This document shows positions 12,347 through 58,706 of a DNA stretch of 64,000 nt, in pieces (position 1 is the first letter of the stretch; each line of letters starts with the position of its first letter). The stretch comes from Limisphaerales bacterium. Lineage in GTDB: Bacteria > Verrucomicrobiota > Verrucomicrobiia > Limisphaerales > UBA1100. A program made the translations under genes and the position numbers. Under the pieces are notes generated by a model. The model saw nothing but the letters and a program-made list of their open reading frames with translations. It did not search any database and was not told where the DNA came from. The stretch lies in contig CBFHWX010000002.1 in NCBI GenBank assembly GCA_965659445.1, forward strand, positions 9,243-73,242, written 5' to 3'.

Positions 12347-12366
12347 TTTGTTCGTTTTAAATTATT

Positions 12367-12639
12367 TTATGAGACAGGGGCTTCAGAGGTGGGTTCAATC
12401 TCGGTATGAGCGGCAGCTTCCTGCATTTGTGCAGCTTGTTGACGGGCTTGTTCTTGCTGTGCGGATCTCAAGCTGACCAACCACAAGGTCATCCACCAAT
12501 GCGCCAGTAAACCGAAAGCTAGGGCGGCGAGGGATGCGCTGATCGTGGTGTGACCCCAATCGCGGTCTAAAGACATGCCTAGGCCGAACACAAATAGAAA
12601 TCCGGCTGCACCGGCAATACTGGTGCCAAAGCGTATCAT
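12367..12639 (-). CDS. Small membrane protein (90 aa, two predicted TM helices, Gln/Ala-rich tail)
   Basis: Its start overlaps the stop of the upstream 1090-aa ORF (ATGA at 12636-12639). It ends 20 nt before fliA. Confidence 0.6.
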   Translation of the reverse strand: MIRFGTSIAGAAGFLFVFGLGMSLDRDWGHTTISASLAALAFGLLAHWWMTLWLVSLRSAQQEQARQQAAQMQEAAAHTEIEPTSEAPVS

Positions 12640-36458: not shown

Positions 36459-37892
36459 TCAGGACGATGTTACCACGCCACCTGCGAGGCGTGAGGTGGA
36501 AAACTGCGCGCAGTGGTTGAAGAGGCAGTGGTTTATTTCTTCCATCAAGTCATCCCAGTGACCTGGTTTATCCTGTCGAAATAGACGCATGGATGGGTAC
36601 CAAGGAGTGTCAGTGCGATGCAGTCGCCATCGCCAGTCAGCAGCGAAGGGGAGAAGTGTCCAGGTAGGTTTGCCGAGGGCTCCGGCCAAGTGTGCGACGG
36701 CAGTGTCTACGGAGATTACCAGATCGGTTTGGCTGATAATTTTGGCGGAGTCGGCAAAATCGCTGATGGAATCCTGCAAGTCATGCACGTTTGAGCGCCG
36801 GTTCATGTCGGCCACCGCTGTGGCGTCCGCATTAATCTGCAAGGAATAGAACGTACAGTTTGGAGTGTTGAAAAGTTTACAAAATTTCGTATAGGGCACT
36901 GTTTTCTTCTCTTTAATCTCACTGTGCGGTGCGCTGGTCCAGGTGACAGCTACTTTCTTGTGGCCTGGTTTTGCTTCCGGAATGGACGCGATAGAAAGTT
37001 CATCAGGCGAGAGATAGGCTTGGGAGTGGAAATCGTTTTCGCGCGTGACCTTGAGCAAGTGAGGCAGGCTCATAAGTGGAGCCTGCAGGTCATAGCTTGG
37101 CAGTTTTTCCCCGTTGGCCACCACATGTTCCAACCCAGGTTGAGTGCTGAAGAGGCGCTTGAGTTGAGGCTGGCACTCTAGGAAGATACGGTTGTGGCCT
37201 TGGCCCATTTGCTGGGCGAAACGCAGGAACATGATTGTGTCCCCAAAGCCTTGTTCGGTGTAAAGGAGCAGGGAGCGTCCATCGAGTGCGTCGCCCTTCC
37301 ACTCGGGTTTTTTGTAGGTGGGTTTCTGTTTGTTTCTCGCTTTCCACCGGAACTCATAATCGCGCCATCCTCGGGTGTAGTCGCCCAGCATCAAGCAAGT
37401 GAGTCCGTGATTCCACCGCAAATCAGGATGATTGGGGTTGTAATAAAGCGCCTTTCGATATTGCATGAGCGCCTCGGGCGCACGATTTTGTTCCTCCAAA
37501 ATCCAACCAAGGTTTACAGCGGCTTGCGCGGAATCCGGACTCACCATCAGTTCCTTTTCCAAGCACGCCTCAGCGGAGGCAATATCGCCCAACAGCTGGT
37601 GTGAATTAGCCATACCCAAGTGGATGCCGGGCTCTTCAGGTTTGCGGCGGGCGGCTGCCTTAAAGTGATTGAGCGCTTCTGTGGGGCGGATTTGTTTGAG
37701 GCGAGCGGCGCCGTAATTGTACCGCAGATCGGGGGAATCGGCACCAAGGTCAAGGACCCGTTGGTATACGGATACAGCAAGGTCTAGCTCTCCCATTTTC
37801 TGGAAGAACAGTCCAAATTTCTGCAGCGCTTCAGCCTTGGACAAGTCCTGAGCTGAGTGGCTGGATTCAACGTCCGTGTTGATTCTCATCAT
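36459..37892 (-). CDS. TPR-repeat protein fused to a GT9 (heptosyltransferase-like) glycosyltransferase domain
   Basis: The N-terminal ~190 aa are TPR-like (LQKFGLFFQKMGELDLAVSVYQRVL...). The C-terminal part has LLLYTEQGFGDTIMFLRFAQ and ISVDTAVAHLAGALGKPTWTLLPF, the GT9 DTGxxHLAxAxGxP motif. Confidence 0.75.
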   Translation of the reverse strand: MMRINTDVESSHSAQDLSKAEALQKFGLFFQKMGELDLAVSVYQRVLDLGADSPDLRYNYGAARLKQIRPTEALNHFKAAARRKPEEPGIHLGMANSHQLLGDIASAEACLEKELMVSPDSAQAAVNLGWILEEQNRAPEALMQYRKALYYNPNHPDLRWNHGLTCLMLGDYTRGWRDYEFRWKARNKQKPTYKKPEWKGDALDGRSLLLYTEQGFGDTIMFLRFAQQMGQGHNRIFLECQPQLKRLFSTQPGLEHVVANGEKLPSYDLQAPLMSLPHLLKVTRENDFHSQAYLSPDELSIASIPEAKPGHKKVAVTWTSAPHSEIKEKKTVPYTKFCKLFNTPNCTFYSLQINADATAVADMNRRSNVHDLQDSISDFADSAKIISQTDLVISVDTAVAHLAGALGKPTWTLLPFAADWRWRLHRTDTPWYPSMRLFRQDKPGHWDDLMEEINHCLFNHCAQFSTSRLAGGVVTSS

Positions 37893-41172: not shown

Positions 41173-44100
41173 TTAACTTTCAGTCGACATTGCTTCAATC
41201 AGCATCATGGTCGCAGTGGGTAGCACGGGTTCGAGGGCATCAATGTTTTTCGCTAAACGATTTGCCGCCTCGTTCTGACCGCGCTCCAAGAGGCGACGGT
41301 ACCATTCCATAAAAGCGGTGCTGATCAGTTGCTCCTTGTCAGGATCACTCAACTGCGCCGTTTGTCCGATGGCAATACGGCACAAGATTCGCGCGCCCTC
41401 GTTCAACGGATGTTGAGGGATCTTTTCAAATAACGCCAGTGCGTCCTTGAAATTTCCAACAGTAAGCAGAGCAACGCCGCGTTGTTTACGTATCTCTGGA
41501 TGTTCCGGGAATTCATCTATAGCGCAATCGGTCCAATGAAGGGCGACTTCAGAATCCTTTAGATGGCCATTGACAATATGACAACCGAGCGACCAGAGGC
41601 GCGCGTCGATGGAGCCGTTTTCAATAGCGTCAAATAGGAGTTTGACAGCTTTTTCCGGTTGTCCCAACTCGGTTAAGTATTGGGCATACCCATGACGAAC
41701 ACTGGTGGCTTCCGGGGCCATGCCCAAGGCTTGTTCATACTCTGTAATGGCTGAGTCTTCTTGGCCGGTCTTAGCCAGGCAATCGGCCAGCAAATGATGA
41801 GGGCCGTGTCCTTCTACACCCATAAATCGTGCAGTGAATGCTGGCTCATCCCGCTTGGTAATGCATTCACGGAAAGGCTCAATCGCCTCCTCAAATCGTT
41901 GCTGTTTCAACAATGCCAAGCCGTGTACGTAATGTATGGATGCAGTTGGTCCGCAATCAATGGCTAGCGTGCTGGTCGCGATCTCCACCAGTTCATCGTA
42001 GAGCTCGGCTTGCAACAAATGATAGCAGTATACACTTACTAATCGTTCGCGCACTTCCGGTAGAATGTCTTCTCGTGTGTGTTTGGAAAGCAGAGCAAAG
42101 GCCTCTTGATCCTTTTCGAGAGCCGCCTCAAACTGCCCGTCATTGAATAGATCCAGGGCGTAATTCATTAGGAGCGTGGGTTCCGGCGGCTGTTCTTTGA
42201 TGGACATTTCAAGAAGTTTCAAGTTGCGCCTCACTTTGTCGCGTTCCTTTTTCACTTCCGGCGCGTAGCCAAAGTGATGCAGGCAGGAGGTGCCTATGCC
42301 CGAGTCCATTTGCCAATCGATCTGACGCGCCAGCACTGAGGAATAAATCTGCTCATGCACGCGGCCCACAAAATGAAGGCTTGGCGCATTGCGGAACAGC
42401 CTCGGTACATAGCATATACCATCGGCGGTTTCATTGTCATCTTGGTCTACCTTGATTTTGTTCACCAGTGGTAAGCGATAGCCGAGATGGTTGGGGCGGG
42501 ACAAATCGTCACACAAGTGGTCGATTTCGCCTGTGGGCAGGATTTCATCGGCGTCCAGCACGAGCACCCAGTCTCCTCGGGCGTGTTCCAGTGCAAAGTT
42601 ACGAGCCGCGGAGAAATCATCGCACCATTCAAATTGATGAACCTCAGCGCCATGTTCTTCGGCAATTGCTACGGTCCGATCGGTAGAGCCTGTGTCGACC
42701 ACGACTACTTGATGGGCAATGTTTGTTATGGATTGCAACGCGTTGCCGAGAAATTTCTCTTCATCCTTGGCAATGAGACAAACGCTCAGGCGTAGACTTG
42801 TAGGGTTTTCGGGTAATGCGGGCCAGTTGATTCCCGGAGATTGTCCGGGTGATTGCTGTTTGATAGCCTCAAGAGCTCGCTGCGGAATCTCCCAGTTGGG
42901 AGTTAATCCCTTCAGCACCTCTAGACATTTCACCGCCTGTTGCGTATCACCGGATTCGAGAGCGATCTCGGCCAGATGCAGGTAAGCCTCGGGGTGGAAA
43001 GGGCGTTGCCCAATGGATTTCAGAGTCTCCTGCCATGATTCGATGTGCAGTCCTTGGTCAAGCAGTTCCTGAGCATGATCCAGATTTCCGACCAATGCTG
43101 TCGCGGGCAAATTTGCAGGATCATTTGTTGTTTTGTTTTGGACATGGCTACAAAGGTTATCCAACACATCGGCGCTGATATGACCGTTCGGTTGAGTTGA
43201 CATCTCGGGTTGAGTGGTTGTGTTGGCAAGTGCCTTCAAGTTCTCGGCGGCCACGGTATTATTTGGATCAATTTCCAAGGCGCGCTTGAAGCAGTCTTCA
43301 GAGGTGTCCTTGTCGTTTAGATTGTGGAAACAAACTCCCAGAGCGAGAATGATCTCAATGTCCTCCGGCAAGTCGGGCAGGGCTTGGCGGTAGAGATCAG
43401 CAGCTTCCTTATATTGTTTCGCCCTAAAATTGGCCGTTGCCAGCAGTTTCAGGCCATGAGAGTTCTCAGGCTCTAACTCGAGCGAGCGTTCCATGTAGAT
43501 TTCAAAGGTTTCATAATCTTTGACAAGCAATGCCGTTGTGGCCGCTTGTAATTGAACAGCGACTTCATTGGGTTGCAAATCGGAGTTTCGTCGAAAATAT
43601 TCCAGTGCCTCCTCTAGTTGTCCTTCACTGAAGTAAAGGTTGCCCAATGCCGTGAGTAGAGCCACTTCACTGGGTTGTTGCGACAGCATATTTTCCAACA
43701 ACGCAATCGCGCGTTGGGGTTCTTTCTGTTCGAGAGCAGCCTGCGCCTCCTGTAATAATTCACTTAGCGGTTGTGATTCTGATTCTTGAGCCTCAGTTTT
43801 CGTTTCGGTGAGTGAGTCACCTTGTTTAATTGCCAAGAGGTTGGTTTGGGCAATTTCGTTTTCCGGCTCCAACTGAAGGGCGCGCTCGTACGTGTCTTGC
43901 GCGGCTTCTGTTTGACCACCCCGATACAGGCACATCGCCAGAGCTAAGAGGTTTTGGACATTGTGTGGTTCCAGTTCCACCAGTTTGCCAAAGATGCGAC
44001 CGGCATCATAGTGGCGCTCCTGGTCGAGATTCATTTTACCCATGAAATGGAGCATCTCTGGCAATTCCGGATCTATCTCCATTGCCAAACCAAGGGCGGA

Positions 44101-47100
44101 TTCAAATTCATCATAACGATCTGTCTCGTAACTGGTCATCGCTAAGCGTGTGTATGCCATGGCGTTACGCGGTTGCAACTCGATGAGATGGCGGAAATGC
44201 CTCCGTGCTTCCTCAAAGCGTTCCTGTTGAAATAGCCCTGATCCCAATGCCTCTATTAGTCGAGGGTTCTTGGGATCGAGTTCCAATGCGCGTTCTAGTT
44301 CTGCAAAGGCCGCTTCCATGTTGCCTGCCTGTTGAAAGAAATCCGCTTGTTCCAGAAACTCATTCACAGGTGCTGTTTCCAAATTGGAATTCACTTGAGC
44401 GGGTGCAGGCGGGTGTTTGCGCAAGGTGTTTTCAGTGACACTCAAGTTGTGTTTTGTCAGTTCATTTTCAGGATCGTGAGTAAGCAACTGTTTGTACGTA
44501 TCCTGAGCACGTTCTACTTCTCCGGTTTTGAATTGGCAAAACGCCAAGGCCTGTAGTGCCTCTACCGTGATACCACCTTGTTCGGCAACTTGATCATATT
44601 TGCGTCGTGCCTCGACATAGCGTTCGGCGCGCACATCTAAATCGGCCAACAACTTAAGTGCCTCAGGATGGTTTGGTTCCATAATGAGCGCTTGCTGCAG
44701 AGCAGTAGTACAGGCCTCCTCGTCGCCGTCGTGAAAGGCAGCTAAGCCGTGCTGTACATGACCCGTGGCATCGTTTGGACACGCGGTTGTAAACTCTTCA
44801 AAAAGTGTTCGCGCCTTATCATACTGTGTTACAAGAAACTGCTGTGTGGCCAAGGCGCGAAGGAGGACTGGATGGCGGTCGCCAAGTTCCAGAGCCTGTT
44901 CTAAAGCCTGGATGGCTCCCGCTCGATCCTCGCGTTCGTTGCAGGCCTCTGCTTGATTCAAGGCCTTTTCAAGTGTTTTCGGTTGAGGTAGGGTATTTTT
45001 GTCCATAACTATTTCAGGTTGTTTTGTTTCAGTCAAAAAATCTGTGTTTTCACCGTAATTCGGCTCGGTACCGTACTCGATCCAGTCGAGGATCTGCCGC
45101 ACACGGATTTCAGCGGTGTGATGGCACAGCACTTTGCGCCGCGCGGTCTCGGCCATTTGCCGGGCTTGATTCGGGTTCGACTGCAGCCAACGGATTTGCT
45201 CGGCCAACTGTTCCGGTTTGTCGCGATCAAACCATAGGATTTCCTTGCCTGGGATGAACAAGGCCTGAGTCCTATCTCGTGGCGGTTTCCAGGAAATTAC
45301 CGGTCTACCGGCTGCCATGCTTTCCACCACGCGTCCGCCGTAAGATTTAAAAATGGATGGCAGATTTACTTGAGCATAACTCTGGCGTAGCCCCCTTTGC
45401 CACAGGTCATTGAGCTGTCGGCGCGTACGGCGAAGTTCCTCTAAATATTCATCCAGCAAATTCAGAGTGATCGTTTCACCTTCGAGGAGTTGCTTAATGG
45501 AAAGGGTTTGGATGTTGTCAAACCGGGTTGGTAGATTGGTACCAGTTTCCACCGGTTTCGGCCGTTGCAGCAGCCCGTGCAGGGCGGGGTGATGCAAAAG
45601 TACCTGTCGTTCCTCGCTATAAAGGGAGCCCTGAAAACTGGCAGCCGCAGCTTCGGGCAAGTGGATATTGCCGCACACATCGCGCCAACTTACAACCGGC
45701 GGGCACCATAAAGTCCTTATGGGTAAATCATTCGGAAGTGTTTCGGCGTCTCGTTCATCAAATGTGAGGACGTGTGTGCAATGTTTCAGATGACCCAAAA
45801 CCTTTTCCCGGCGTGATCTGAGTTTTGCATAGTGTGTTTCTTCCTCTGTGGAATGTTCTAAGGATTCCATGACCACTCCAACACGCACTGGCGCGATAGT
45901 TTCCAGCCATTCCATGAATTTCGGGTCGTAATCGTTGTGAGTGACCCAAATCCATACTTGGTCAAAAGTGTTGTCTTGCGTGAAAATCTCCGCCTGTCGA
46001 AGCCAGGAGCCGCGGTGGTTGGAGGGCACCCCAGCGATGGCCGGCAGCGTGAGGTGTTTGACATCGTGTGTACCTAGCGCATCTTCCAGCGCGTAAAAAC
46101 CGTTGTACGACCAAGTGTGAGCATGCTCCCAGTTTCCGCATTCAAACGAGATGAGTAGAACTTTTTTGGGATCATTCTGTTCACCCGTAGGGCAGGCCAA
46201 ATGGGAGGATGTCACTCGGCCAGATGTGAGCCGTTCTTTACCCGCAAAAGGATCTTCCGAAAGCGCCAGTTTGGTTATACCTGAGGGCAAAACTAGCGTG
46301 TCATTCTCGAAGAGACTGCTGGAGTGAGTGGAGGCAAACGTGATGCGTTGTAGATTGCGGAACCGATTTTCATAAGTTTCCCACTCGGGGATGGAAACAT
46401 TGCAGTGTTCTTGAATGTTGGTCAGAAGCCGAAAGGATGGAGTGATCAGGATACTGGAATTGAAAAGCACCTCCAGCAACGAAGTCGCTCGTTCGGCATC
46501 GCCTACGTTATTTCTTAACAGCAGTGAACGGGCGAGTGAATATTGATAACGCGGGAATTCCGGATCCCAATTTACGGCCTGTTCCAAGTGCTCAACCTCA
46601 CCGGTGTACTGGCCCAAATAATGAGCGAGAGAGGCAAGAATCAGATTTTTCAACTTGTCCGTGTCCAAGCAATTATTACCGAGTCCCAGTGTGAGAGTGT
46701 CCAGGTAGCTCCGATAATTGAAGAAGGCGCCGTGATAATCCCACGGCATGATGTCTTCGTGCGGATCAATTACACCAAAGCTCTCCGTGTTGTTTAGGAT
46801 TGACCGAACGTGGTCTAGCACCTCCTGAATGTATTCGGGTTCGCCTAAGTGCAGATCATGTCGGATTCCATTAAATCGTAAAGCCAGCGAGTCAGGGTGT
46901 GTGTCCCAACCGTGCCGATAAATCCGGTTGGCATCTTCGTTTAGCTCTGTTTGCATCCGGTTAATTTTTTTGTATTCGTCGGGATTCCTCATCAGCCTTT
47001 GGATGTCAGGTATGTCGCTCGACAAATACAAATCTACTTCCCTTGCTGCATCAATGATTTGACTAGCCCTGGGATTGACTGATTCCTTCTCTTCACACTC

Positions 47101-48504
47101 TTTCCAAGTATGTTTAAGTTGGCATTGATTAATCGTCGGTGGATAAACCCAACCTTTTTTGGCAATGACACGTTTTTGATGCGGGGCATCAGGCGATTGG
47201 CGCCACCGGCTTTGTCCAGCATTGGCAGTTTGTACGGTCAGGAAACGTAGAAATTGAGAGATGCACCGGCTTTGTTGGAATTCGCGGCGCATGATTTGAG
47301 ATCCCCGCTGGGCCTGAGGGCCAACGGTTTGCCAGTTTTCAACAAGATCGTTTATACGATTTGCCAGTTGATCGGGCTCGTAAATATAGACGCCTTCATC
47401 TTGACCGACATAAAGCCCCAGAGCGCTTCCAGCCTGTGTTAGTACTGCGCAGCCGGCGGCCAATGATTCTACTCCCCGGGAAGGCATGCTGCCAGGATGG
47501 CGAATATAGGTGAAAGAGACCTTGGATCGCATTAATTCACTCGCATAACTCAAAGGGGCAAGAAACCCATCCATGGAACGAATGTGCAGCGAGGTATCTC
47601 CCAGCAATGCCTGAAGGAGTCGGGCTTTGTCTGGATGATAATGACTGCTCATGGTTCCCGAGATGAAAACATCTACCTCACGGTTTTCTGGTGCAGTGAT
47701 GGTTTGGAAATGATTCGGGTTAATGCCGAACAGTTTTGGAAAAGTGCAAACTGGACCGTGACGCAATGAACGAACCTTTGCCCACTCCTCGGGTCCGAGT
47801 GTGATTACTTGGTCAAACGCGGGCAGCCAGGGAGCGTTGTTTTGAATATGGATATCCGTGTCCGATGTAACACCGAAAGTTGGACAATCGAGTTCCGTAA
47901 GGTCGTAGGGCAAGTATTGCCACTCGATCATATGGGCAAAATAAAAGTCCGGTTTGATGGTCAGTTCCTCCCGAATGCCGAGGAATGGCTTTTCCGGTAT
48001 ACGGCAATCAGGAACCCATAGTCCCTCACTATTTCGGCGGGTGCGTTTGATGCCCGCATGTTGCACGTGGAAATGATCGTCCTCAAAAACGTCTTCTTCC
48101 CAGACCGTTTGAGTCAGTACATTGATTTGCGGCTTCCGGATTAGCGCCAGCAAGCGCTTGGCTTCCGGCAAATTAGAATGGGACAAGACATCCGTCGCCT
48201 CCGCTTCGTTGCCATCAATCCATAATGCGGCCCCAAGGTAAAATCTTGCTTCATCGGAATTCTCTTTTTCTAGGCCAGCGACGGCGGAGTGTACTTGGCC
48301 GATCAGGCCCATTGCGGCAGAGATCTGCTGTCCATCCACTTGGGAAGAACCCGCCACGCCACAGAAGTTCCCGGCAGTAAACCAATCCTCCGGCGTGCCG
48401 AGGGAAGCATCCGTGTACGAATAAATCTCAATATCCCGGTCTGGGAATTGACTTTTCACATCCATGTTACCCAAAACAAAGCAACTTCCGGGCCAAAGGT
48501 GCAA
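41173..48504 (-). CDS. Giant (2443 aa) multi-glycosyltransferase/TPR protein: two GT-B-like modules, a TPR array, a GT2 module and a second TPR array
   Basis: This is a single uninterrupted 7.3-kb ORF. GT-B-like module 1 lies at about 47300-48465 (DVFISGT...RGVESLAAGCAVLTQ). Module 2 lies at about 45070-46175 (GGRVVESMAAGRPVISW). The first TPR array spans about 42800-44990. The GT2 module lies at about 42100-42790 (LSVCLIAKDEEKFLGNALQS...VVVVDTGSTDRT...WVLVLDADE). More TPR-like helices follow at 41173-42100. The track start at 48504 is a TTG; an alternative ATG lies at 48465. Confidence 0.85.
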   Translation of the reverse strand: MHLWPGSCFVLGNMDVKSQFPDRDIEIYSYTDASLGTPEDWFTAGNFCGVAGSSQVDGQQISAAMGLIGQVHSAVAGLEKENSDEARFYLGAALWIDGNEAEATDVLSHSNLPEAKRLLALIRKPQINVLTQTVWEEDVFEDDHFHVQHAGIKRTRRNSEGLWVPDCRIPEKPFLGIREELTIKPDFYFAHMIEWQYLPYDLTELDCPTFGVTSDTDIHIQNNAPWLPAFDQVITLGPEEWAKVRSLRHGPVCTFPKLFGINPNHFQTITAPENREVDVFISGTMSSHYHPDKARLLQALLGDTSLHIRSMDGFLAPLSYASELMRSKVSFTYIRHPGSMPSRGVESLAAGCAVLTQAGSALGLYVGQDEGVYIYEPDQLANRINDLVENWQTVGPQAQRGSQIMRREFQQSRCISQFLRFLTVQTANAGQSRWRQSPDAPHQKRVIAKKGWVYPPTINQCQLKHTWKECEEKESVNPRASQIIDAAREVDLYLSSDIPDIQRLMRNPDEYKKINRMQTELNEDANRIYRHGWDTHPDSLALRFNGIRHDLHLGEPEYIQEVLDHVRSILNNTESFGVIDPHEDIMPWDYHGAFFNYRSYLDTLTLGLGNNCLDTDKLKNLILASLAHYLGQYTGEVEHLEQAVNWDPEFPRYQYSLARSLLLRNNVGDAERATSLLEVLFNSSILITPSFRLLTNIQEHCNVSIPEWETYENRFRNLQRITFASTHSSSLFENDTLVLPSGITKLALSEDPFAGKERLTSGRVTSSHLACPTGEQNDPKKVLLISFECGNWEHAHTWSYNGFYALEDALGTHDVKHLTLPAIAGVPSNHRGSWLRQAEIFTQDNTFDQVWIWVTHNDYDPKFMEWLETIAPVRVGVVMESLEHSTEEETHYAKLRSRREKVLGHLKHCTHVLTFDERDAETLPNDLPIRTLWCPPVVSWRDVCGNIHLPEAAAASFQGSLYSEERQVLLHHPALHGLLQRPKPVETGTNLPTRFDNIQTLSIKQLLEGETITLNLLDEYLEELRRTRRQLNDLWQRGLRQSYAQVNLPSIFKSYGGRVVESMAAGRPVISWKPPRDRTQALFIPGKEILWFDRDKPEQLAEQIRWLQSNPNQARQMAETARRKVLCHHTAEIRVRQILDWIEYGTEPNYGENTDFLTETKQPEIVMDKNTLPQPKTLEKALNQAEACNEREDRAGAIQALEQALELGDRHPVLLRALATQQFLVTQYDKARTLFEEFTTACPNDATGHVQHGLAAFHDGDEEACTTALQQALIMEPNHPEALKLLADLDVRAERYVEARRKYDQVAEQGGITVEALQALAFCQFKTGEVERAQDTYKQLLTHDPENELTKHNLSVTENTLRKHPPAPAQVNSNLETAPVNEFLEQADFFQQAGNMEAAFAELERALELDPKNPRLIEALGSGLFQQERFEEARRHFRHLIELQPRNAMAYTRLAMTSYETDRYDEFESALGLAMEIDPELPEMLHFMGKMNLDQERHYDAGRIFGKLVELEPHNVQNLLALAMCLYRGGQTEAAQDTYERALQLEPENEIAQTNLLAIKQGDSLTETKTEAQESESQPLSELLQEAQAALEQKEPQRAIALLENMLSQQPSEVALLTALGNLYFSEGQLEEALEYFRRNSDLQPNEVAVQLQAATTALLVKDYETFEIYMERSLELEPENSHGLKLLATANFRAKQYKEAADLYRQALPDLPEDIEIILALGVCFHNLNDKDTSEDCFKRALEIDPNNTVAAENLKALANTTTQPEMSTQPNGHISADVLDNLCSHVQNKTTNDPANLPATALVGNLDHAQELLDQGLHIESWQETLKSIGQRPFHPEAYLHLAEIALESGDTQQAVKCLEVLKGLTPNWEIPQRALEAIKQQSPGQSPGINWPALPENPTSLRLSVCLIAKDEEKFLGNALQSITNIAHQVVVVDTGSTDRTVAIAEEHGAEVHQFEWCDDFSAARNFALEHARGDWVLVLDADEILPTGEIDHLCDDLSRPNHLGYRLPLVNKIKVDQDDNETADGICYVPRLFRNAPSLHFVGRVHEQIYSSVLARQIDWQMDSGIGTSCLHHFGYAPEVKKERDKVRRNLKLLEMSIKEQPPEPTLLMNYALDLFNDGQFEAALEKDQEAFALLSKHTREDILPEVRERLVSVYCYHLLQAELYDELVEIATSTLAIDCGPTASIHYVHGLALLKQQRFEEAIEPFRECITKRDEPAFTARFMGVEGHGPHHLLADCLAKTGQEDSAITEYEQALGMAPEATSVRHGYAQYLTELGQPEKAVKLLFDAIENGSIDARLWSLGCHIVNGHLKDSEVALHWTDCAIDEFPEHPEIRKQRGVALLTVGNFKDALALFEKIPQHPLNEGARILCRIAIGQTAQLSDPDKEQLISTAFMEWYRRLLERGQNEAANRLAKNIDALEPVLPTATMMLIEAMSTES

Positions 48505-48638
48505 AAAAAAGCCGTGGGATTAGTAAATATCAACTAAAATGCCTATTTTACCTTTTTATCAATAAAAATCAGATTTTAGTTTGAATTCTCAAATAACCAC
48601 TTTGCAGGTGAGAAAGGCGACAAAAAAACTGATGGTCA

Positions 48639-48655
48639 CGGCATATTAACTGCTG
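48639..48655 (+). promoter_or_regulatory. Degenerate sigma-54-like element (CGGCATattaaCTGCTG) upstream of the radical SAM gene
   Basis: GG and GC are retained at consensus spacing and the TGCTG extension is shared with the flagellar sites. The first consensus T is a C. Confidence 0.3.
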
Positions 48656-48776
48656 TGACATGGCCATGGTTTCAACGATTGAAACGACAGATTTACCGAC
48701 CAAAGCAAAGAAAAACGCTCCCATAAAAAGGGGTGTGGACGGCGGTGATTTAGTCGTTTAGCATCATATTCGCGTT

Positions 48777-50396
48777 ATGCGTGTTCTATTCGTAGTTTAT
48801 GATAATGGGTCGTATGATCACATTTTCCCAATGGGACTTGGGGCAATTGGGGCTATCTTAAAGAGAGATGGGCACGAAATTAGTGTCTGGAATCAAGATA
48901 TGCATCATTGGCCAGATGAGTACTTAACAGAGTATTTAGATAAAAATAAATTTGATTTGGTTATCGTGAGTTTGATAGCTGGTTATTACCAATATAGAAG
49001 AATGTTGGGACTATCTAAAGCAATCAATAAATCTAAACAACGGCCAACTTATGTAATCGGAGGTTACGGACCAACACCTGAGCCAGAATATTGGCTCAGG
49101 AAACTAGAATGCGACATAGTAGGGCTAGGAGAGGGAGAAATTACAATATCTGAGCTAACAAAAACGCTAGATAATAATGAACCATTGGAACAGGTTCCCG
49201 GAATTGCGTGGATAGATGTAAGTGGCAAATTTCAGGAAACACCAAGGCCTCCACAAATCGAAGATTTAGATTCTCTTCCGTGGTATCCGTATGAATTGTT
49301 CCCAATGGAGTATTACAGGCTCATGGAACTTCCCAGAGCTTCAGCAACTGATTTTCGCATGCCAATGATGTCTGCAAGAGGTTGCACTTTTAAATGTACG
49401 TTTTGTTACAGGATGGACCCTGGCTACAGAAAGCGTGATCCAGTAGCATTACTTGATGAGGTGGAGTTTCTTTATAAGGATTACGGTATAACAAGAATTA
49501 CATTTCAGGATGATTTATTAATGTCATCTGTTGAACATACAATTGAGGTTTGCCGCGAGTTTGAAAAGCGCAAACTGCCAATTACATGGGATTGTAATGG
49601 ACGGTTAAATTATTGCAGCAAAGAATTGTTGGAGTATATGAGTAAGGTGGGATGTGTTTATATTAATTATGGAATTGAATCAATGGATCCCAATGTGCTT
49701 AACAGCATGAAAAAGGGCTTGTCCCCTAAAACGATTACTCAAGGAATAGAATGGACATTGGATGTTGGAATAAGCCCAGGCCTTAATTTTATATTTGGTT
49801 ATCCTGATGATAATATGGATACCATAAAAAAATCAGTGAACTTTTTACTGAAGTACGATGATTTTTCAGAAAAAAGAACTATTCGACCTGTAACTCCATA
49901 TCCGGGATCGCCCATTTATTATGACGCTATCAATAAGGGTTTACTGGATAAAGATAATCCCGCAGCGGATTTCTACGAAAACAAACATCTTAATTCTGAT
50001 CTGATATCCGTAAATTTAACAAAACTTCCCGATGAAGAATTCTATAAGTGTATTCAATGGGCAAACAAAACACTTATGGAGAATTACTTCAATAATCAGC
50101 GCGAGAACACCCTTGCCCAAATAGACTATTTATATACTACAAAAGACACTTCTTTTAGGGGTTTTAGGGGCATGCATGATGACACGACAATGGAACATGC
50201 CAAGGGGAAAAATAATGATTTAAAAAACTGGGAGGGGTCTAAAAAATCTGATGGTGACAGATTTTCAACTCATGGGCTTGGTAAATCTAGGCTTAAGAAA
50301 GAAATTAAAGTAAAAGATGGAAATGCGGGGAATGCCAGTAAAAAGTTTAAACATGAATATAAAAAAATAATATCAAGAGAAAAAGTGTTGAAATGA
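48777..50396 (+). CDS. B12-binding (class B) radical SAM enzyme
   Basis: The N-terminal cobalamin-binding-like Rossmann segment reads FDLVIVSLIAGYY...VIGGYGPT. The CxxxCxxC cluster motif is ARGCTFKCTFCY (49382-49405). The C-terminal tail is Lys-rich. The gene is visibly AT-rich. Confidence 0.9.
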   Translation: MRVLFVVYDNGSYDHIFPMGLGAIGAILKRDGHEISVWNQDMHHWPDEYLTEYLDKNKFDLVIVSLIAGYYQYRRMLGLSKAINKSKQRPTYVIGGYGPTPEPEYWLRKLECDIVGLGEGEITISELTKTLDNNEPLEQVPGIAWIDVSGKFQETPRPPQIEDLDSLPWYPYELFPMEYYRLMELPRASATDFRMPMMSARGCTFKCTFCYRMDPGYRKRDPVALLDEVEFLYKDYGITRITFQDDLLMSSVEHTIEVCREFEKRKLPITWDCNGRLNYCSKELLEYMSKVGCVYINYGIESMDPNVLNSMKKGLSPKTITQGIEWTLDVGISPGLNFIFGYPDDNMDTIKKSVNFLLKYDDFSEKRTIRPVTPYPGSPIYYDAINKGLLDKDNPAADFYENKHLNSDLISVNLTKLPDEEFYKCIQWANKTLMENYFNNQRENTLAQIDYLYTTKDTSFRGFRGMHDDTTMEHAKGKNNDLKNWEGSKKSDGDRFSTHGLGKSRLKKEIKVKDGNAGNASKKFKHEYKKIISREKVLK

Positions 50397-50484
50397 TTTT
50401 ACATGCACTTATCTAGCTTAAGCCTATACCATGCAGATTTGTGTAAAATCCAAATATGTTACTTAATAGTAAATTACGTAAACA

Positions 50485-51654
50485 ATGCGGAAAAAAGTGT
50501 TCTTGTTAGTTGGGTTTGAAGGTTTGCCCGAACTGTTGACTCAATACAATCCAGACGAACCGTCTGCATTTATTTTTCAAAACAATCCAGGCAATCGTTT
50601 TTTTGTTGAAAAGATCCTCAAGAAAAAAGAGTGTAGCCTGTCTGTTAATGGTTTCCCTTCTAATGTAGTAGTTTTTGATAAGGACCCGGAAAGCAATAAA
50701 GGTCAATCATTGGCCTTCCAAGATTTCACCCCTAATCAATGGTCTTCTTTTTTGGGAATCCCTGAGTTTGTGAAACAAATCAGGGATTACATCAATAAGC
50801 TGCAGCCAATATCGGAAATAGTTTGGTACAATCGCCAGGACCTTTGGGTGTCGTTAGTACTGAGTATTGCTAAGGATATGAAAATCCCAACTTTACTAAT
50901 ACAATCAGAACGCAATTCACAAATAAAATTTAATTATTGGAACAATGAGAAATTGAGAGAAATCAATCCGAAAACGGCGGGATTTATTGATCAACTGAAT
51001 AGCGCGCTTTCTCAGAAACTGTTATTAGCGGACATATACTTGGATAACATTGATGATTGCATGCTCTATTCAGGGTTAAGCCCGGCGTTAGAGGGGCATA
51101 GGCAATTGGATGTATCTTTGGATGAAGTTGCAGAAAATATAAATAAATTAAAAAGAGAATTAAATTATTCATGTGATGTGAAACCCAACAAATCAAACTC
51201 TGAAATATTATTTGTTGATGATGGAATGTCATTTGATGATCACGGGTATAACTGGGAAAAGACTCGTGATAATCTCAAGAGATATTTTATTGATTTGCCC
51301 ACTGATGTCCCTGTAACAATAAAGATGAGGCAAGTCAGGGATGAAGATGAAGGCACAAAGAATCAACTTGTTGAGTTATTCCCGGCGCGGTCAAAAATTA
51401 GATTTGCCCAATCTTTTATGCCCTTAGAGTTTATGATTAGCGATTTTGATATGGTCTTTTACATGCTTACCTCCTCTATGCTGTATCCATTCAAAACCAG
51501 ACGTATAAGTTTATTCAAATTATTAGCTGTGGAAAAAGAAAGTTTTCACGCCCGTTGGAAAATCTATATGAAATATATTAAATCATTATCTTCTGGTGAT
51601 TCTCTAATTATCACAGAAAGTAAATCAAGGGTAGAAGACCTGGTTCCTCATTAG
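50485..51654 (+). CDS. Hypothetical protein (389 aa), AT-rich; possible GT-B-type transferase (weak)
   Basis: It is a clean ORF in the same AT-rich islet as the radical SAM gene. N-terminal KKVFLLVGFEG and C-terminal DFDMVFYMLTSSMLY loosely resemble GT-B or capsule-type transferases. No firm motif was found. Confidence 0.5.
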   Translation: MRKKVFLLVGFEGLPELLTQYNPDEPSAFIFQNNPGNRFFVEKILKKKECSLSVNGFPSNVVVFDKDPESNKGQSLAFQDFTPNQWSSFLGIPEFVKQIRDYINKLQPISEIVWYNRQDLWVSLVLSIAKDMKIPTLLIQSERNSQIKFNYWNNEKLREINPKTAGFIDQLNSALSQKLLLADIYLDNIDDCMLYSGLSPALEGHRQLDVSLDEVAENINKLKRELNYSCDVKPNKSNSEILFVDDGMSFDDHGYNWEKTRDNLKRYFIDLPTDVPVTIKMRQVRDEDEGTKNQLVELFPARSKIRFAQSFMPLEFMISDFDMVFYMLTSSMLYPFKTRRISLFKLLAVEKESFHARWKIYMKYIKSLSSGDSLIITESKSRVEDLVPH

Positions 51655-51895
51655 GCTACTTCCAAAGAATTTGATATTGAATTCAGAAAGTCAAAGTGAG
51701 TTGATCTGCGAATCGACGGGCGCGAAGCGTTTAATGCATATATCGTTGTCCTTTTCGTATGGTCCACCGGAAAAAGGGGGGGGCAAAGCGCGCACTTAGT
51801 CGCGGTGAAAGCTACATCAAGTATATCCCAACAGCGCAATGCAGGCGCAACTCGAAAGTGGCCAGATTTGATCAGTTATCGGAAGGAATAATTGC

Positions 51896-52429
51896 ATGTG
51901 TGGACTGAACTTGGAGAGATTGGAATCGATTGTTTGTGATTTTGATGGTGTGCTGACAGACAATCGCGTGTGGACGGATGCTGAGGGGCGTGAAATGGTA
52001 GTGTGTCATCGGGGTGATGGTTTGGCATTCGATGTGTTGCGAGCGATGCCCGTGAAAGTATTTATTCTTTCCACTGAAACGAACCCGGTAGTTGCGCGAC
52101 GGGCACAAAAGCTGTGTGTGCCTTGCTTGCAGTCGGTTGGTTGCAAAGCGGAGGCATTGCGCGAGTTATCGGCAGAACATCAATTTTCATTGGGGCACAC
52201 GTTGTTTATAGGTAACGATTTAAATGATCTGGCAGCAATGGATTTATGTGGGTACCGTGCGTGTCCGGCGGACGCGCATCCGGTAGTTCGATCGCGCGCG
52301 CATATAGTCACCGGTGTGGTGGGCGGTAATGGGGTGGTCCGGGAATTAGTGGAGAAACACTTGAGCATAGACATGGACAAGGCGTTGCGGAAAGGCGCTG
52401 GTGGGGAAGAAGGGCGAGAATGTTCATAA
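51896..52429 (+). CDS. HAD-IIIA phosphatase of the KdsC / ulosonate-phosphate phosphatase family
   Basis: The HAD motif I is IVCDFDGVLTDNRVW. Also present are GDGLAFDVLR, FIGNDLNDLAAM and GGNGVVRELVE, as in KdsC and KDN-9-P phosphatase. It overlaps the NeuB-like gene by 10 nt. Confidence 0.85.
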   Translation: MCGLNLERLESIVCDFDGVLTDNRVWTDAEGREMVVCHRGDGLAFDVLRAMPVKVFILSTETNPVVARRAQKLCVPCLQSVGCKAEALRELSAEHQFSLGHTLFIGNDLNDLAAMDLCGYRACPADAHPVVRSRAHIVTGVVGGNGVVRELVEKHLSIDMDKALRKGAGGEEGRECS

Positions 52430-53262
52430 TCGCTGAGATCGGAATTAATCACAATGGGGATGTAGACATTGCGCAGGCGTTAATCTGTACGGCCAAGGAA
52501 GCGGGATGTGACGCGGTGAAATTTCAGAAGCGAACCTTGGAGGTGGTGTATCCGGCGGAGGTGCTTGACGCGCCACGGGAGAGCCCTTGGGGTACAACCA
52601 ATCGCCAGCAGAAAGAAGCACTTGAGTTTGGCCGAAAGGAGTATGAGCAGATCGATGCGTTTTGCCGCGAACTAAACATTGAATGGTTTGCTTCGGCCTG
52701 GGACAAGGAGAGCCAAATTTTTCTGCGGCAGTTTAATCTTAAGTACAACAAGATTGCCTCGGCGATGATTGTAGATGAATCGCACTTGCGCCAAGTGGCG
52801 GAGGAAGGGAAGCATACCTTCATTTCCACAGGGATGAGCCAGATGACGGACATTGAACGGGCGGTGACGGTGTTTCGTGAATTGGGCTGTTCCTTTGAGT
52901 TGATGCATACCATCTCGACATATCCTATGAAAGATGAAGACGCTAACCTGAACTGCATACCCATGCTTCGTAAAAAATTCCAATGTGATGTGGGCTACAG
53001 CGGTCATGAGTCGGGACTGGCAGTATCTTATGCGGCTGCGGCGTTGGGGATCAGTTCGTTGGAACGGCACATTACTTTGGATCGAGTGATGTACGGGTCC
53101 GATCAGGCGGCTTCTGTAGAGCCAGTCGGCCTGCGCATGCTGGTGGGTGCGGTGCGCAAGATTGAGGAGGCGATGGGCGACGGGGAGAAATGCCTGCTGG
53201 AAAGCGAGAGACCTATCGCCCAAAAGTTGCGGTTGCATTTGCCTTGGGAGTCTGGTGAATGA
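52420..53262 (+). CDS. NeuB-family (sialic/ulosonic acid) synthase, TIM-barrel only, without the C-terminal SAF/AFP-like domain
   Basis: MFIIAEIGINHNGDVDIAQALICTAKEAGCDAVKFQKRT is the NeuB N-terminal signature. GYSGHESG and LERHITLD are also present. At 280 aa it is about 60-70 aa shorter than canonical NeuB, PseI or LegI. Confidence 0.85.
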   Translation: MFIIAEIGINHNGDVDIAQALICTAKEAGCDAVKFQKRTLEVVYPAEVLDAPRESPWGTTNRQQKEALEFGRKEYEQIDAFCRELNIEWFASAWDKESQIFLRQFNLKYNKIASAMIVDESHLRQVAEEGKHTFISTGMSQMTDIERAVTVFRELGCSFELMHTISTYPMKDEDANLNCIPMLRKKFQCDVGYSGHESGLAVSYAAAALGISSLERHITLDRVMYGSDQAASVEPVGLRMLVGAVRKIEEAMGDGEKCLLESERPIAQKLRLHLPWESGE

Positions 53263-53514
53263 AATTACACAAACGAAAGCCCGTCGGTTGTGGCTCGAGC
53301 GCATGTAGGGGTGGTTGCTGCTCAAGCATAAAAAGGCCGGTATCAGACGCATTCGACGAGGTGCTGGCGTGATGAGCTTCCCAAGGCATAGCAGATTTAC
53401 CGGATATATTTTTCCGACGGCGGGATTTGGATTTTAATGGCGTGATGACCAGACAGGCTTATAAGGAAGACGAAGGGGTCGCGGTTTTTTGCGAACAGGT
53501 TGAACTGGGGGGGA

Positions 53515-54285
53515 ATGTTTGGAATGCCTGACGCTGCGCATGATTCCACGGTGGCCATCATTCCCGCCAGATCGGGATCGAAATCCGTTCCTGATAAGAA
53601 CATCGCTGATCTTGCTGGCCATCCTGTGTTGGCTTACAGCATTGCCGTGGCGAGATTGAGTCAGGAAATCGATCGAGTGTTGGTTTCAACTGACAGTAAT
53701 GACTATGCCGACCTTGCCCGGGAATATGGAGCGGAAGCTCCATTTTTGCGACCGGCGGAGTTGGCTTCTGACACTGCGGGGGATTTGGAAGTCCTACGCC
53801 ATGTCATGGACTGGATGAGCGACCATGAACATCATGTGCCGGAGTACTGGGTGTATCTTCGACCGAGTACTCCGCTGCGGGATCCCGTGTTGGTGGACCA
53901 AGCCATCCGGCAGTTCAAAGATACCGGCGAAGCAGTATCTCTGCGCTCGGCGCATCCCGCTCCAGAAAGTCCTAGGAAGTGGTTTCGCAAATTGGGTAAT
54001 AACTTTTTTCCCCTGATGGACGGCGTTACCATGGCGGAAACCGACCAGCCAAAAGAGGCCTTTGCCACGGCTTTTGTTCCGGATGGTTATGTGGATGTTT
54101 TCAAAACCTCCCACGTGCGCGGCCGAGGAGCACTGCACGGTGATCGTATCATGGCGTTTGTCTCACCTGTTAACACGGAAATCGACAGTGCCGAAGAGTT
54201 GGACTATCTGCGCCACCAACTGGAGAGTAACGGATCGCCGTTGTTGGAGTTCTTAAATAAACTAGAGAGAGGAGGAACGCCGTAG
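53515..54285 (+). CDS. CMP-ulosonic acid (acylneuraminate-type) cytidylyltransferase
   Basis: AIIPARSGSKSVPDKNIADLAGHPVLAYSI...RVLVSTDS...FLRPAELASD is the NeuA/KdsB-family N-terminal pattern. The start is uncertain: the track gives a TTG at 53500, and ATGs lie at 53515 and 53524. Confidence 0.85.
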   Translation: MFGMPDAAHDSTVAIIPARSGSKSVPDKNIADLAGHPVLAYSIAVARLSQEIDRVLVSTDSNDYADLAREYGAEAPFLRPAELASDTAGDLEVLRHVMDWMSDHEHHVPEYWVYLRPSTPLRDPVLVDQAIRQFKDTGEAVSLRSAHPAPESPRKWFRKLGNNFFPLMDGVTMAETDQPKEAFATAFVPDGYVDVFKTSHVRGRGALHGDRIMAFVSPVNTEIDSAEELDYLRHQLESNGSPLLEFLNKLERGGTP

Positions 54286-55667
54286 TGGCTGAATCTACCA
54301 TGGTCGCCGCGCCGGTGGAGGTGCCTCAAGTGGACACGCCGCATCGCCGCATCGTCACGCCGCTTCCAGTTCCGGAAAGTATAGCCCTGTTTGAAAGGCT
54401 TGAACGGACGGAGGCGCGCTCCATGCACGGTCAGCTGCCAGTGATCTGGGATCGGGCTGATGGTATTCATGTTTACGATCCCTGGGGCAACATGTGGCTG
54501 GATTTCACCAGCACCATTTGTGTCGCTAACGCCGGCCACGGTCACCCAGCGGTGGTGGAGGCCATCCGTCACCAGATAGATCGGCCGCTTCTGCACACCT
54601 ACACCTTTGCCCATGCCGAACGAGTGGCGTTTCTGGAATACCTGATTGCCCACACCCCTTCCCAATTTGAAAAGGCGTTTCTGGTATCTGCTGGATCGGA
54701 GGCGGTGGAGGCTTCGCTGAAGCTGATGCGCCTACACGGCCAAGCAGCCGGCAAGCGCCGAGGGGGCGTGCTCTGTATTGAGGGCAACTGGCATGGCCGC
54801 ACGCTGGGCGCACAGATGATGGCTTCCAACCCGGTCCAGCGCGAATGGATTGGCTACCATGATCCCAACCTGCATCACTTGCCCTTTCCGTTTCCTTGGG
54901 TGACAGAGATCGCCAACGATCCCGTGGCCTTTTTCCGGAAGAGCCTGGAGGAACTGGAGCAGACCCACGGTCTGGATCCGACACGGGATTTATGCGGCGT
55001 GATGCTTGAAACCTACCAAGGATGGGGCGGTTTTTTTTACCCCCCCGAATTCGTGCTGGAGTTGGTCCGCTTCGCCCGAGAGCATGATCTGCTGGTCACT
55101 TTTGATGAAGTGCAATCCGGTTTTGGGCGGACCGGTGAGCTATTCGGTTACATGCATTATGGCGTGGAGCCGGACATCATCTGTTGCGGCAAGGGCGCCA
55201 GCTCCAGCGTGCCGTTGGCATTTGTAATGGGATCGCGGAAGATCATGGACCTACCCGAATTTGGCTCCATGAGTTCCACGCACTCAGCCAACCCCTTGGC
55301 CTGTGCCGCAGGACGGGCCAGTTTTGAGGTGTTGCTTAACGAGGGGTTGATTGACAATTCCCGCAGTCTGGGTGCTCAAATGCACGAGCGCTTGCAGGCA
55401 CTTCCGCTGCGCCACCCCCAACACATCCGTTCAGTGGAAGGGCGAGGCCTTATGGCCGGGATTATCTTTTACAATGAAGATGGCTCCAGCGGCACGGACC
55501 TATGCAACCAGATGTGTGAGCGGGCTATGCAGCGCGGATTGCTGGTGGTGAAGACAGGGCGCGAATCTATAAAGCTAACGCCGCCCCTGAACATCGATGA
55601 GGCGGCTTTGTTTGAAGGAATCGAAGTGCTGGAGGAAGTGGTGAACCAGGTGATCGCCGATGATTAG
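54285..55667 (+). CDS. Class III PLP-dependent aminotransferase
   Basis: Motifs are SAGSEAVEASLKLMR, FDEVQSGFGRTGELFG and the Lys motif DIICCGKGASS. The GTG start overlaps the upstream stop; an alternative ATG lies at 54300. Confidence 0.9.
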   Translation: MAESTMVAAPVEVPQVDTPHRRIVTPLPVPESIALFERLERTEARSMHGQLPVIWDRADGIHVYDPWGNMWLDFTSTICVANAGHGHPAVVEAIRHQIDRPLLHTYTFAHAERVAFLEYLIAHTPSQFEKAFLVSAGSEAVEASLKLMRLHGQAAGKRRGGVLCIEGNWHGRTLGAQMMASNPVQREWIGYHDPNLHHLPFPFPWVTEIANDPVAFFRKSLEELEQTHGLDPTRDLCGVMLETYQGWGGFFYPPEFVLELVRFAREHDLLVTFDEVQSGFGRTGELFGYMHYGVEPDIICCGKGASSSVPLAFVMGSRKIMDLPEFGSMSSTHSANPLACAAGRASFEVLLNEGLIDNSRSLGAQMHERLQALPLRHPQHIRSVEGRGLMAGIIFYNEDGSSGTDLCNQMCERAMQRGLLVVKTGRESIKLTPPLNIDEAALFEGIEVLEEVVNQVIADD

Positions 55668-56094
55668 CGCCCTGCGTCATACCGGGCTGGTGGTGCAAGA
55701 TCTAGAGTCCGCCATCGGATTTTACGAGGGTTTGGGGCTGCGTCTTTGGCGGCGTGAGACAGAGACAGGGCCATTTATTGAGCAGGTTACCGGTTTGTCT
55801 GGTGTACGTCTCGAATGGGCAAAACTCAAGGCCCCAGACGATTCGCTTTTGGAACTACTGCAATATCATTCACACCCCGCAAACGCTCTGCATGAAATTG
55901 CCCCCGTCCAAACTCATGGCTGTTCGCATGTCGCTTTCACCGTGGCAGATGTGGAAGCCACCTGTGCGCGTGTTAAAGAACTTGGAGGCACGGTGACCAA
56001 CCCTCCCGCACTATCATCTGATAAATGCGTGTGTGTGGCCTACGGGCACGATGTAGATGGGGTTCTAATCGAACTGGTGGAGGAACTGTCTTGA
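55660..56094 (+). CDS. VOC (glyoxalase/bleomycin-resistance/epimerase fold) family protein
   Basis: 144 aa. LRHTGLVVQDLESAIGFYEGLGL and GCSHVAFTVADVEATCARVKELGG are typical paired beta-alpha-beta-beta-beta modules. It overlaps the aminotransferase stop. Confidence 0.75.
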   Translation: MISALRHTGLVVQDLESAIGFYEGLGLRLWRRETETGPFIEQVTGLSGVRLEWAKLKAPDDSLLELLQYHSHPANALHEIAPVQTHGCSHVAFTVADVEATCARVKELGGTVTNPPALSSDKCVCVAYGHDVDGVLIELVEELS

Positions 56095-56978: not shown

Positions 56979-57063
56979 AGTGTATTTGGGGTTTTGTGAC
57001 AAAAGTCTGATGGTGACCGTGCTTGGTGTAGTATTTATGGCTGAAGGCTTCCAAGTTTAGCAT

Positions 57064-58691: not shown

Positions 58692-58706
58692 ATATAGGGG
58701 GAGAAA

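Follow-up and report, generated by a model that had tools for sequence, protein, structure and literature searches.

Cytoplasmic O-glycosylation of flagellin is widespread, and the selection of flagellin, the choice of acceptor sites and the order in which several sugars are attached are only partly understood. GmaR of Listeria monocytogenes, a cytoplasmic, flagella-linked protein of 637 aa which transfers O-linked N-acetylglucosamine (O-GlcNAc) to flagellin, has a single catalytic glycosyltransferase (GT) domain of family GT2 followed by a tetratricopeptide-repeat (TPR)/helical domain (22ao; PMC9638930). GT2 initiators were described in Pseudomonas aeruginosa PAO1 (FgtA/PA1091) and in Clostridioides difficile (CD0240, together with CD0244), and in PA1091 the GT2 domain is fused to a phosphotransferase (PMC11833859). 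In Pseudomonas syringae, the large cytoplasmic transferases Fgt1, Fgt2 and VioT (1,173 aa in the case of VioT), separate polypeptides encoded by separate genes, build a trisaccharide stepwise on flagellin serines (PMC3927599). FlmG of Caulobacter and Brevundimonas (596 aa), reported as confined to Caulobacterales, consists of TPRs and one GT-B domain; the sugar that it transfers, in the cytoplasm and prior to export, is pseudaminic or legionaminic acid (PMC7591256; bioRxiv 10.1101/2023.12.03.569772). Its TPRs were shown experimentally to bind flagellin (PMC7591256), and the Maf-1 TPR domain gives acceptor specificity (bioRxiv 10.1101/2023.12.03.569772); docking of flagellin by TPRs was proposed for Maf-1 and GmaR. 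Here we describe a giant gene on a stretch of DNA from a Limisphaerales bacterium (assembly GCA_965659445.1, contig CBFHWX010000002.1, positions 9,243 to 73,242), which encodes three transferase modules and long TPR arrays in one chain. The window analysed is this whole stretch of 64,000 nucleotides, and all positions below refer to it.

We consider the giant protein to be probably a cytoplasmic multi-enzyme flagellin O-glycosyltransferase. Flagellin had already been suggested as the substrate by a sequence-only reading of this DNA. Homology of the C-terminal unit to GmaR, synteny with flagellar genes and unfused versions of the same units beside a flagellin gene in a deltaproteobacterium support this suggestion, and the presence of the family of the first module in non-flagellated cyanobacteria speaks against it. 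GT2-TPR flagellin transferases, their fusions with other enzymes and stepwise glycan building by several transferases are already known. New are the three transferases of two fold classes in one chain, the triplicated five-TPR cassette, the occurrence in Verrucomicrobiota and the rare family of the first module. The size and domain order, called unusual in the sequence-only reading, are so with respect to the three-in-one fusion and the length; otherwise the statement was too strong in view of PA1091 (PMC11833859) and Fgt1/Fgt2/VioT (PMC3927599). PA1091 is a precedent for multi-step flagellin glycan synthesis by one polypeptide, but its partner domain is a phosphotransferase and the protein is much smaller. 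The Pseudomonas syringae enzymes are likened to the giant protein by the mechanism described for them.

Anatomy of the giant protein

The uninterrupted open reading frame (ORF) occupies 41173..48504 of the minus strand and has 2443 codons if counted from a TTG. Since the homologs all begin at the methionine of MDV..., the ATG at 48465 and not the TTG at 48504 was taken as the true start, and residue numbers follow the resulting protein of 2430 aa (Table 1). About 2440 stop-free codons at 51% GC exclude a chance origin of the frame (roughly (61/64)^2440). GC content is even over the ORF (0.50–0.51) and drops to 0.37–0.42 directly upstream, at 48–52 kb. Public data include an identical protein; its 90% cluster comprises copies of 2428–2443 aa, which come from no fewer than six independent assemblies (NCBI, ENA and JGI), and 15 more full-length homologs have 2285–2470 aa and 44–74% identity. 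The source names given for the homologs point to Verrucomicrobiota (subdivision 3 or Pedosphaera-like metagenome-assembled genomes, MAGs). A scan of 185,579 species-representative genomes revealed the N-terminal module at 51 loci, in 11 of which all segments were within one ORF. Because of the independent assemblies, the full-length homologs and these 11 genomes, we regard the fusion as real and conserved.

The single polypeptide, the three transferase modules (by Pfam, AlphaFold and Foldseek) and the cytoplasmic location proposed in the sequence-only reading were all confirmed, and the motifs quoted there are present (ESLAAGCAVL at 333–342, ESMAAGRPVISW at 1048–1059 and VLVLDADE at 1967–1974). 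No transmembrane (TM) segment or signal peptide was found in the giant protein, the maximal Kyte-Doolittle mean over 19 residues being 1.45.

The C-terminal unit consists of a GT2 domain of GT-A fold (module 3) and a TPR/helical domain. Module 3 matched PF00535 with 71–74 bits (cutoff 23.3) and, in the PDB sequence search, the GT domain of GmaR (22ao_A; E 1.5e-30, 109.7 bits, query 8–211 against chain 6–201) with 32.7% identity, as well as SunS (E 4e-14). Its motifs DTGSTD (1924–1929), DADE (1971–1974) and HE (2037–2038) are the same in GmaR, and DTGSxD, DADE, HE and HxGY...KxxRN are invariant in 32 homologs and GmaR. GT2 enzymes are inverting and use a metal-dependent DxD mechanism, and GT4 enzymes are usually retaining. 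Pfam TPR matches cover residues 274–467 of the 550-aa C-terminal segment, with repeats at 2096, 2175, 2220 and 2323, and residues 2071–2255 match the profile of the central TPR cassettes described below. Judging by the GT2 domain with its DxD motif, the homology to GmaR, the position of the TPRs after the GT domain and the flagellar linkage, the C-terminal unit is predicted to be of the GT2-TPR flagellin transferase kind. FgtA/PA1091 and CD0240 are likened to it by description.

The giant protein differs from GmaR in having two GT-B modules and 15 more TPRs upstream. The anti-repressor chain of GmaR (141–637) gave no match with the C-terminal 550 aa in the PDB search at E <= 1. In GmaR, C-terminal linker and anti-repressor domains bind MogR; as no anti-repressor domain was detected here, the C-terminal unit does not count as an orthologue of GmaR with respect to regulation. 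SunS-type enzymes (7msp/7msn) have a GT2 and a helical substrate-binding domain like the C-terminal unit, but the NCBIfam model TIGR04195 scored 59.4 bits against a cutoff of 350, and there is no context of ribosomally synthesized and post-translationally modified peptides (RiPP). Neither the giant protein nor the 40 neighbouring ORFs scanned had a Pfam match to MAF_flag10/DUF115, the domain of the Maf flagellin nonulosonate transferases. In described domain order, FlmG (TPRs, then GT) corresponds to a 477-aa protein of the neighbourhood and not to the giant, whose domains also differ in number. The latter is thus not of the FlmG, Maf or SunS type.

Modules 1 and 2 are both complete GT-B folds. 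Module 2 scored 59.3 bits with PF13524 (cutoff 25) and 29.3 bits with PF00534 (cutoff 26.4). Its AlphaFold model is a complete GT-B with a predicted local distance difference test score (pLDDT) of 90.7 and a predicted template modelling score (pTM) of 0.87. Foldseek matched it to SdgB, PimB', TarM, TreT and PglA (best E 1e-8; E 1e-8 to 1e-6 for SdgB, PimB' and TarM); a sequence search against PDB gave no match, so that its GT-B identity came from the fold comparison alone. Residues H843, R861, E867, D903, D906, R953, R1015, N1034, R1045 and E1048 are invariant. The model of module 1, built with a 38-sequence alignment, is a complete two-domain GT-B (pLDDT 87, pTM 0.88), matched by Foldseek to TreT, BshA, MshA and sucrose-phosphate synthase (SPS) with a best E of 8e-6 (8e-6 to 1e-4 for TreT, BshA and MshA) and a target TM-score of about 0.5; for both modules the TM-scores were about 0.45–0.54. 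Its invariant residues are E181, W182, D202, D204, R262, S269, K280, R322 and R330, and E333 is nearly invariant. The conserved Arg, Lys and Glu of both modules sit in the nucleotide-binding half, and the conserved Glu stands in the context R-G-x-E-S-[LM]-A-A-G.

The GT4 enzymes SdgB, TarM, PimB', TreT, BshA and MshA (7vfl, 4x7p, 3oka, 2x6q, 5d00, 3c48) have the same two-Rossmann fold as modules 1 and 2, and SdgB itself is a direct protein Ser O-GlcNAc transferase; the two modules differ from them in sharing 8–16% identity and in lacking the full EX7E motif. A recent internal duplication as the origin of modules 1 and 2 was rejected: BLASTP gave E 0.015 in the Glu-helix region only, and hhalign aligned 82 C-terminal columns with 11.6% probability.

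Two helical regions add to the earlier description. The first is a cap, whose helices 34–109 had pLDDT >90 in the model of residues 1–790. The second is a domain of 265 aa (443–708) with the invariant motif D571-W575-D576...F582-R585-Y587-D589, which may be an acceptor-binding region.

Dense Pfam TPR matches were found at about 1200–1760 and 2150–2350. The TPR array of about 730 aa proposed in the sequence-only reading does contain TPRs, but is really three five-TPR cassettes, after which come a linker of low complexity and a helical hairpin that is conserved (residues 1749–1870 together). Cassettes A, B and C are in register, align without gaps at 26–29% identity and give z of about 15 against shuffles; the central region thus arose by tandem triplication of one cassette, in which a capping helix follows five TPRs of 34 residues each. 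There are three cassettes in the close clade, two in the homologs P0017 and P0018, and one or none detected in distant full-architecture homologs.

Table 1. Positions in the window of the giant gene, its domains and the adjacent features
Feature	Residues	Position	Strand	Basis or remark
Complete coding sequence	1-2430	41173..48465	-	2430 aa + stop; ATG at 48465
Helical (TPR-like) cap	~20-110	48136..48408	-	AlphaFold of residues 1-790
Module 1, divergent GT-B fold	114-416	47218..48126	-	AlphaFold, Foldseek, conservation
All-helical domain	443-708	46342..47139	-	Conservation, AlphaFold; constant companion of module 1
Module 2, GT4-like GT-B	792-1131	45073..46092	-	Pfam, AlphaFold, Foldseek, conservation
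TPR cassette A	1165-1346	44428..44973	-	5 TPRs + capping helix
TPR cassette B	1367-1548	43822..44367	-	5 TPRs + capping helix
TPR cassette C	1567-1748	43222..43767	-	5 TPRs + capping helix
Helical hairpin before GT2	~1800-1870	42856..43068	-	Nearly invariant RPFHPEA, 1821-1827
Module 3, GT2 (GT-A)	1888-2091	42193..42804	-	Pfam, PDB sequence search, motifs
C-terminal TPR/helical domain	2096-2430	41176..42180	-	Belongs to GT2 unit
477-aa TPR + GT9-type GT-B neighbour		36459..37892	-	N-terminal TPRs, C-terminal heptosyltransferase-like domain
DUF4836 gene, 635 aa		38105-40012	-	Lipoprotein-type signal ...LWMGC
Unannotated 357-aa gene		40091-41164	+	Lipoprotein-type signal ...VAWGC
Variable sugar-biosynthesis/modification island		48777..59540	+	Content differs between relatives

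Flagellar synteny and relatives with separate units

The giant gene lies within a flagellar regulon. The window encodes FlgI, FlgH, FlgA, FlgG/F, FliS, FliD, MotAB and a FliA-type sigma factor, together with FlgB/C, FliE, FliP, FliR, FlhB, FlhA and FlhF. Between FlhF and the giant gene there are three conserved genes, coding for the 477-aa TPR-GT protein, the DUF4836 protein and the 357-aa protein. In close relatives the order giant gene, lipoprotein, DUF4836, TPR-GT, FlhF-FlhA-FlhB-FliR was observed at every locus reaching far enough (L001-L003, L007, L009-L011, L013, L015, L041 and L047).

Two units, module 1 with the helical domain and GT2 with the C-terminal TPRs, are each found independently of the other in further large proteins with several transferases. 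The giant protein has thus arisen by fusion of no fewer than three units that existed before, together with an expanding TPR array. The deltaproteobacterial MAG L016 contains a same-strand array which ends with genes for proteins of 1227, 626 and 602 aa followed by a flagellin gene. The 1227-aa protein is composed of module 1, the helical domain, GT2 and TPRs, and the other two are GT2-TPR proteins. The 602-aa one, which borders the flagellin gene, aligned with the C-terminal unit of the giant over 361 residues (E 3e-31). At L006, a protein with modules 1 and 2 is encoded in an island ending with FlaF/FlbT. These two loci of other phyla support the flagellar link independently. In the homolog P0008, identity to the window protein is 37% and 32% in the N-terminal unit and 75% and 71% in the GT2 unit, and this mosaic points to an exchange of the N-terminal transferase unit among lineages.

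An exhaustive HMMER search covering 1.84 billion representative proteins showed that residues 25–705 recur as one stretch of about 680 aa in 368 proteins (187 at E <= 1e-30), most of them 650–1200 aa long. The family of module 1 and the helical domain is therefore rare, with no specific Pfam model covering it, and standalone module 1 proteins of about 700 aa are kept in many phyla. Those of non-flagellated cyanobacteria have about 800–1000 aa and were seen at L018, L020 (Nodosilinea nodulosa PCC 7104), L026, L027, L035 and L037.

A B12-dependent radical S-adenosylmethionine (SAM) gene adjoins many module 1 genes of other phyla, often immediately upstream; such loci include L016:2740-4242, L017:8019-9548, L020:4994-6505, L037:7914-9419 and L053:982-2490. 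This partner enzyme has 57–86% identity across Deltaproteobacteria, Acidobacteria, Cyanobacteria, Planctomycetota and Melainabacteria, and verrucomicrobial relatives have a homolog of it at 36–42% identity. The pairing is a hint that the sugar or acceptor handled by module 1 is radical-SAM-modified. The B12-radical SAM gene of the window (48777-50396) was rejected as the conserved partner of module 1, having 21–26% identity to the partner family.

Proposed action and alternative explanations

The C-terminal GT2-TPR unit would start the glycan by attaching a sugar to Ser/Thr of flagellin that is still to undergo type III export. Because of its homology to GmaR, and with CD0240 and FgtA being the same kind of enzyme, this unit is the most likely initiator. 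The two GT-B modules would attach more sugars, which either lengthen the first one to a short oligosaccharide or are placed at other sites. Flagellin may be docked near all three active sites by the three five-TPR cassettes and the TPRs of the GT2 unit; we read these 15 central and the C-terminal repeats as a flagellin dock because the TPRs of FlmG bind flagellin and those of Maf-1 give acceptor specificity. Donor sugars would be supplied and decorated by the hypervariable neighbours (nonulosonic-acid synthesis, B12-radical SAM, methyl- and sulfotransferases). All glycosylation steps would take place in the cytoplasm, ahead of type III export, and a protein with neither TM segment nor signal peptide fits such pre-export modification, as in FlmG and Maf. 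Strictly sequential assembly of an oligosaccharide on flagellin is a tentative proposal, to which we give about half the credence of the flagellin reading itself.

A bolder version of this scheme, which we put forward as a speculation that is rather unlikely to hold, is a single-chain assembly line. Here the triplicated cassettes would hold one partly unfolded, export-competent flagellin and pass its acceptor region between the three sites in fixed order, the entire oligosaccharide being completed processively and with no release, and the N-terminal unit would represent an uncharacterised transferase family using an unusual radical-SAM-modified donor or acceptor.

Among the alternatives, the one that survives best is that the substrate is not flagellin. 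It could be another protein of the flagellum or the cell surface (from hook, cap, pilus, sheath or S-layer) or else a glycan, soluble or bound to a lipid, the flagellar neighbourhood then reflecting co-regulation or history. Several findings weigh against flagellin in this respect. The unit of module 1 and the helical domain occurs in non-flagellated cyanobacteria (Nodosilinea, Pseudanabaena, Spirulina), in many Planctomycetota and in many other phyla; module 1 is therefore not flagellin-specific. P0022, a distant full-architecture homolog, and P0041 are found in non-flagellar contexts. With the termini of E. coli FliC and the L016 flagellin as tblastn queries, no flagellin gene was detected in the window or in the 57 loci except L016, and no sigma-28-type promoter (TAAA-N14-16-CCGAWA) was found upstream of the giant gene. 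Moreover, TPR-bearing cytoplasmic transferases are reported to modify cyanobacterial pilins (PMC9306852). Against another substrate stand the facts that the GT2 unit has a flagellin transferase as its nearest characterised relative, that synteny with the genes of flagellar export does not vary within the clade, that the unfused genes of L016 abut a flagellin gene, and that neither a membrane anchor nor a lipid-carrier enzyme is evident. On balance, a different substrate appears unlikely to us.

Somewhat less probable again is the explanation that the GT2 unit alone is an active flagellin transferase and that one or both GT-B modules are degenerate, binding a nucleotide sugar or the substrate with no transfer, and serve along with the TPR cassettes as a scaffold, chaperone-like holder or regulator. 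Module 1 is indeed highly divergent. As an isolated segment it scored 24.3 bits with PF13524 (E 3e-5), just under the cutoff of 25, and 11.7 bits with PF00534, and it gave no match to PDB by sequence, whether as a single sequence or as a profile. Because of this sub-threshold score and the lack of a sequence-detectable solved relative, the predicted activity of module 1 is derived from its fold and conservation. The ExxxxxxE-type halves assigned to both GT-B modules in the sequence-only reading did not withstand inspection, since the strict EX7E pair is lacking in both. Each has one Glu (E333 and E1048), with G325 and K1040, respectively, eight residues upstream and V341 and V1056 eight residues downstream. 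A second, non-catalytic function also has a precedent in the anti-repressor role of GmaR (PMC9638930, PMC3150276). However, similarity to the anti-repressor domain was not detected, the charged residues at nucleotide-binding positions are invariant in 28–38 homologs, down to about 32% identity, as expected of active enzymes, and many phyla have kept the module 1 family in standalone form.

That the long ORF is a mis-assembly or sequencing error joining separate genes is practically negligible: at L015 (FRAM_RAS_EGC1617_bin25, 9458-13036) the giant ORF is broken after module 1, where a frameshift, a gap or a pseudogene is possible, but the copies with at least 90% identity in at least six independent assemblies, the 15 full-length homologs, the 11 species-level genomes with all segments in one ORF and the uniform GC content all contradict it.

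Neighbouring genes and implications

The 477-aa TPR-GT protein has 58–89% identity and is encoded beside FlhF in all close relatives. From its domain composition it is a probable second flagellin transferase. The idea that it is the nonulosonate transferase was weakened by its retention in relatives with NeuB-less flanks. The DUF4836 and 357-aa proteins may be accessories of the flagellum in the periplasm or outer membrane that are peculiar to Verrucomicrobia.

The island on the other side of the giant gene encodes a B12-radical SAM enzyme, a 389-aa protein, a haloacid dehalogenase (HAD) hydrolase, a NeuB-like nonulosonate synthase, a PseF-like cytidylyltransferase, an aminotransferase, a glyoxalase-fold protein, a methyltransferase, a TIM-barrel protein and two short-chain dehydrogenases/reductases; beyond it lie a GT2 gene and a double sulfotransferase. 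The island genes probably supply or modify donor sugars. A conserved transferase beside hypervariable sugar genes is the signature of a flagellar glycosylation island (PMC13317340). The content of the sugar side differs indeed between relatives: L001 has adenosine 5'-phosphosulfate (APS)-kinase/sulfotransferases, methyltransferases and a glycerophosphotransferase, and L003 has a DegT aminotransferase, transketolase-like genes and a radical SAM enzyme. At L001 and L016 the Glyphos_transf gene is separate, unlike the fusion in PA1091.

The NeuB-like and PseF-like genes (52420-54285) were seen in the window only, with no NeuB found in the upstream flanks (about 9.5–10 kb) of eight relatives, and nonulosonic-acid decoration appears strain-specific. 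The stretch 48000-52000, with GC 0.37–0.42 against about 0.51, contains the B12-radical SAM gene and the 389-aa ORF (50485-51654), which has no family match; it looks horizontally acquired. The 389-aa protein, encoded just upstream of the HAD, NeuB-like and PseF-like genes, could be a nonulosonate transferase that has so far gone unrecognised.

The 681-aa protein encoded at 61936-63981 on the minus strand matched a sulfotransferase domain in two stretches. APS kinase/sulfotransferase fusions were found at L001:3195-4628 and 7992-8795, and ATP sulfurylase at L016:7000-8088. The recurrence of sulfur-activation and sulfotransferase genes suggests sulfated glycans. A 405-aa protein (60610-61827, minus strand) with C-terminal TPRs (about 267–383) and an unannotated N-terminal domain with a DSDD motif may be another TPR-coupled transferase, and a small GT2 gene (59741-60607) adjoins its gene. 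Between the gene of the FliA-type sigma factor and flgB, the flagellar cluster includes the gene (12636-15908, minus strand) of a 1090-aa protein in which Sel1 repeats are combined with a trypsin-like peptidase domain.

One good sigma-28-type match was found at 6682-6707 on the minus strand, TAAAGTTATGCTCAAATCTGCCGATA, within the 3' part of the ORF 6554-7384; fliS (5616-6179) lies about 500 bp downstream of it. A small late flagellar gene that was left unannotated may be present in the gap 6180-6553. Sigma-70 and terminator scans remained at background level.

With a GmaR/FgtA-like initiator, two further transferases and at least 15 TPRs in one chain, the giant protein would be a compact system for reconstitution. 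If assembly is sequential, point mutants in each of the active sites would give a ladder of truncated glycans. Relatives with one, two or three cassettes represent a natural series bearing on the role of the scaffold, and if the assembly-line version is true, the cassette number would tune reach or processivity. Our literature search on flagellin glycosylation in Verrucomicrobia returned gut-microbiome reviews only. The giant transferase, probably acting on flagellin, would extend the flagellin glycosylation machinery to Verrucomicrobiota.

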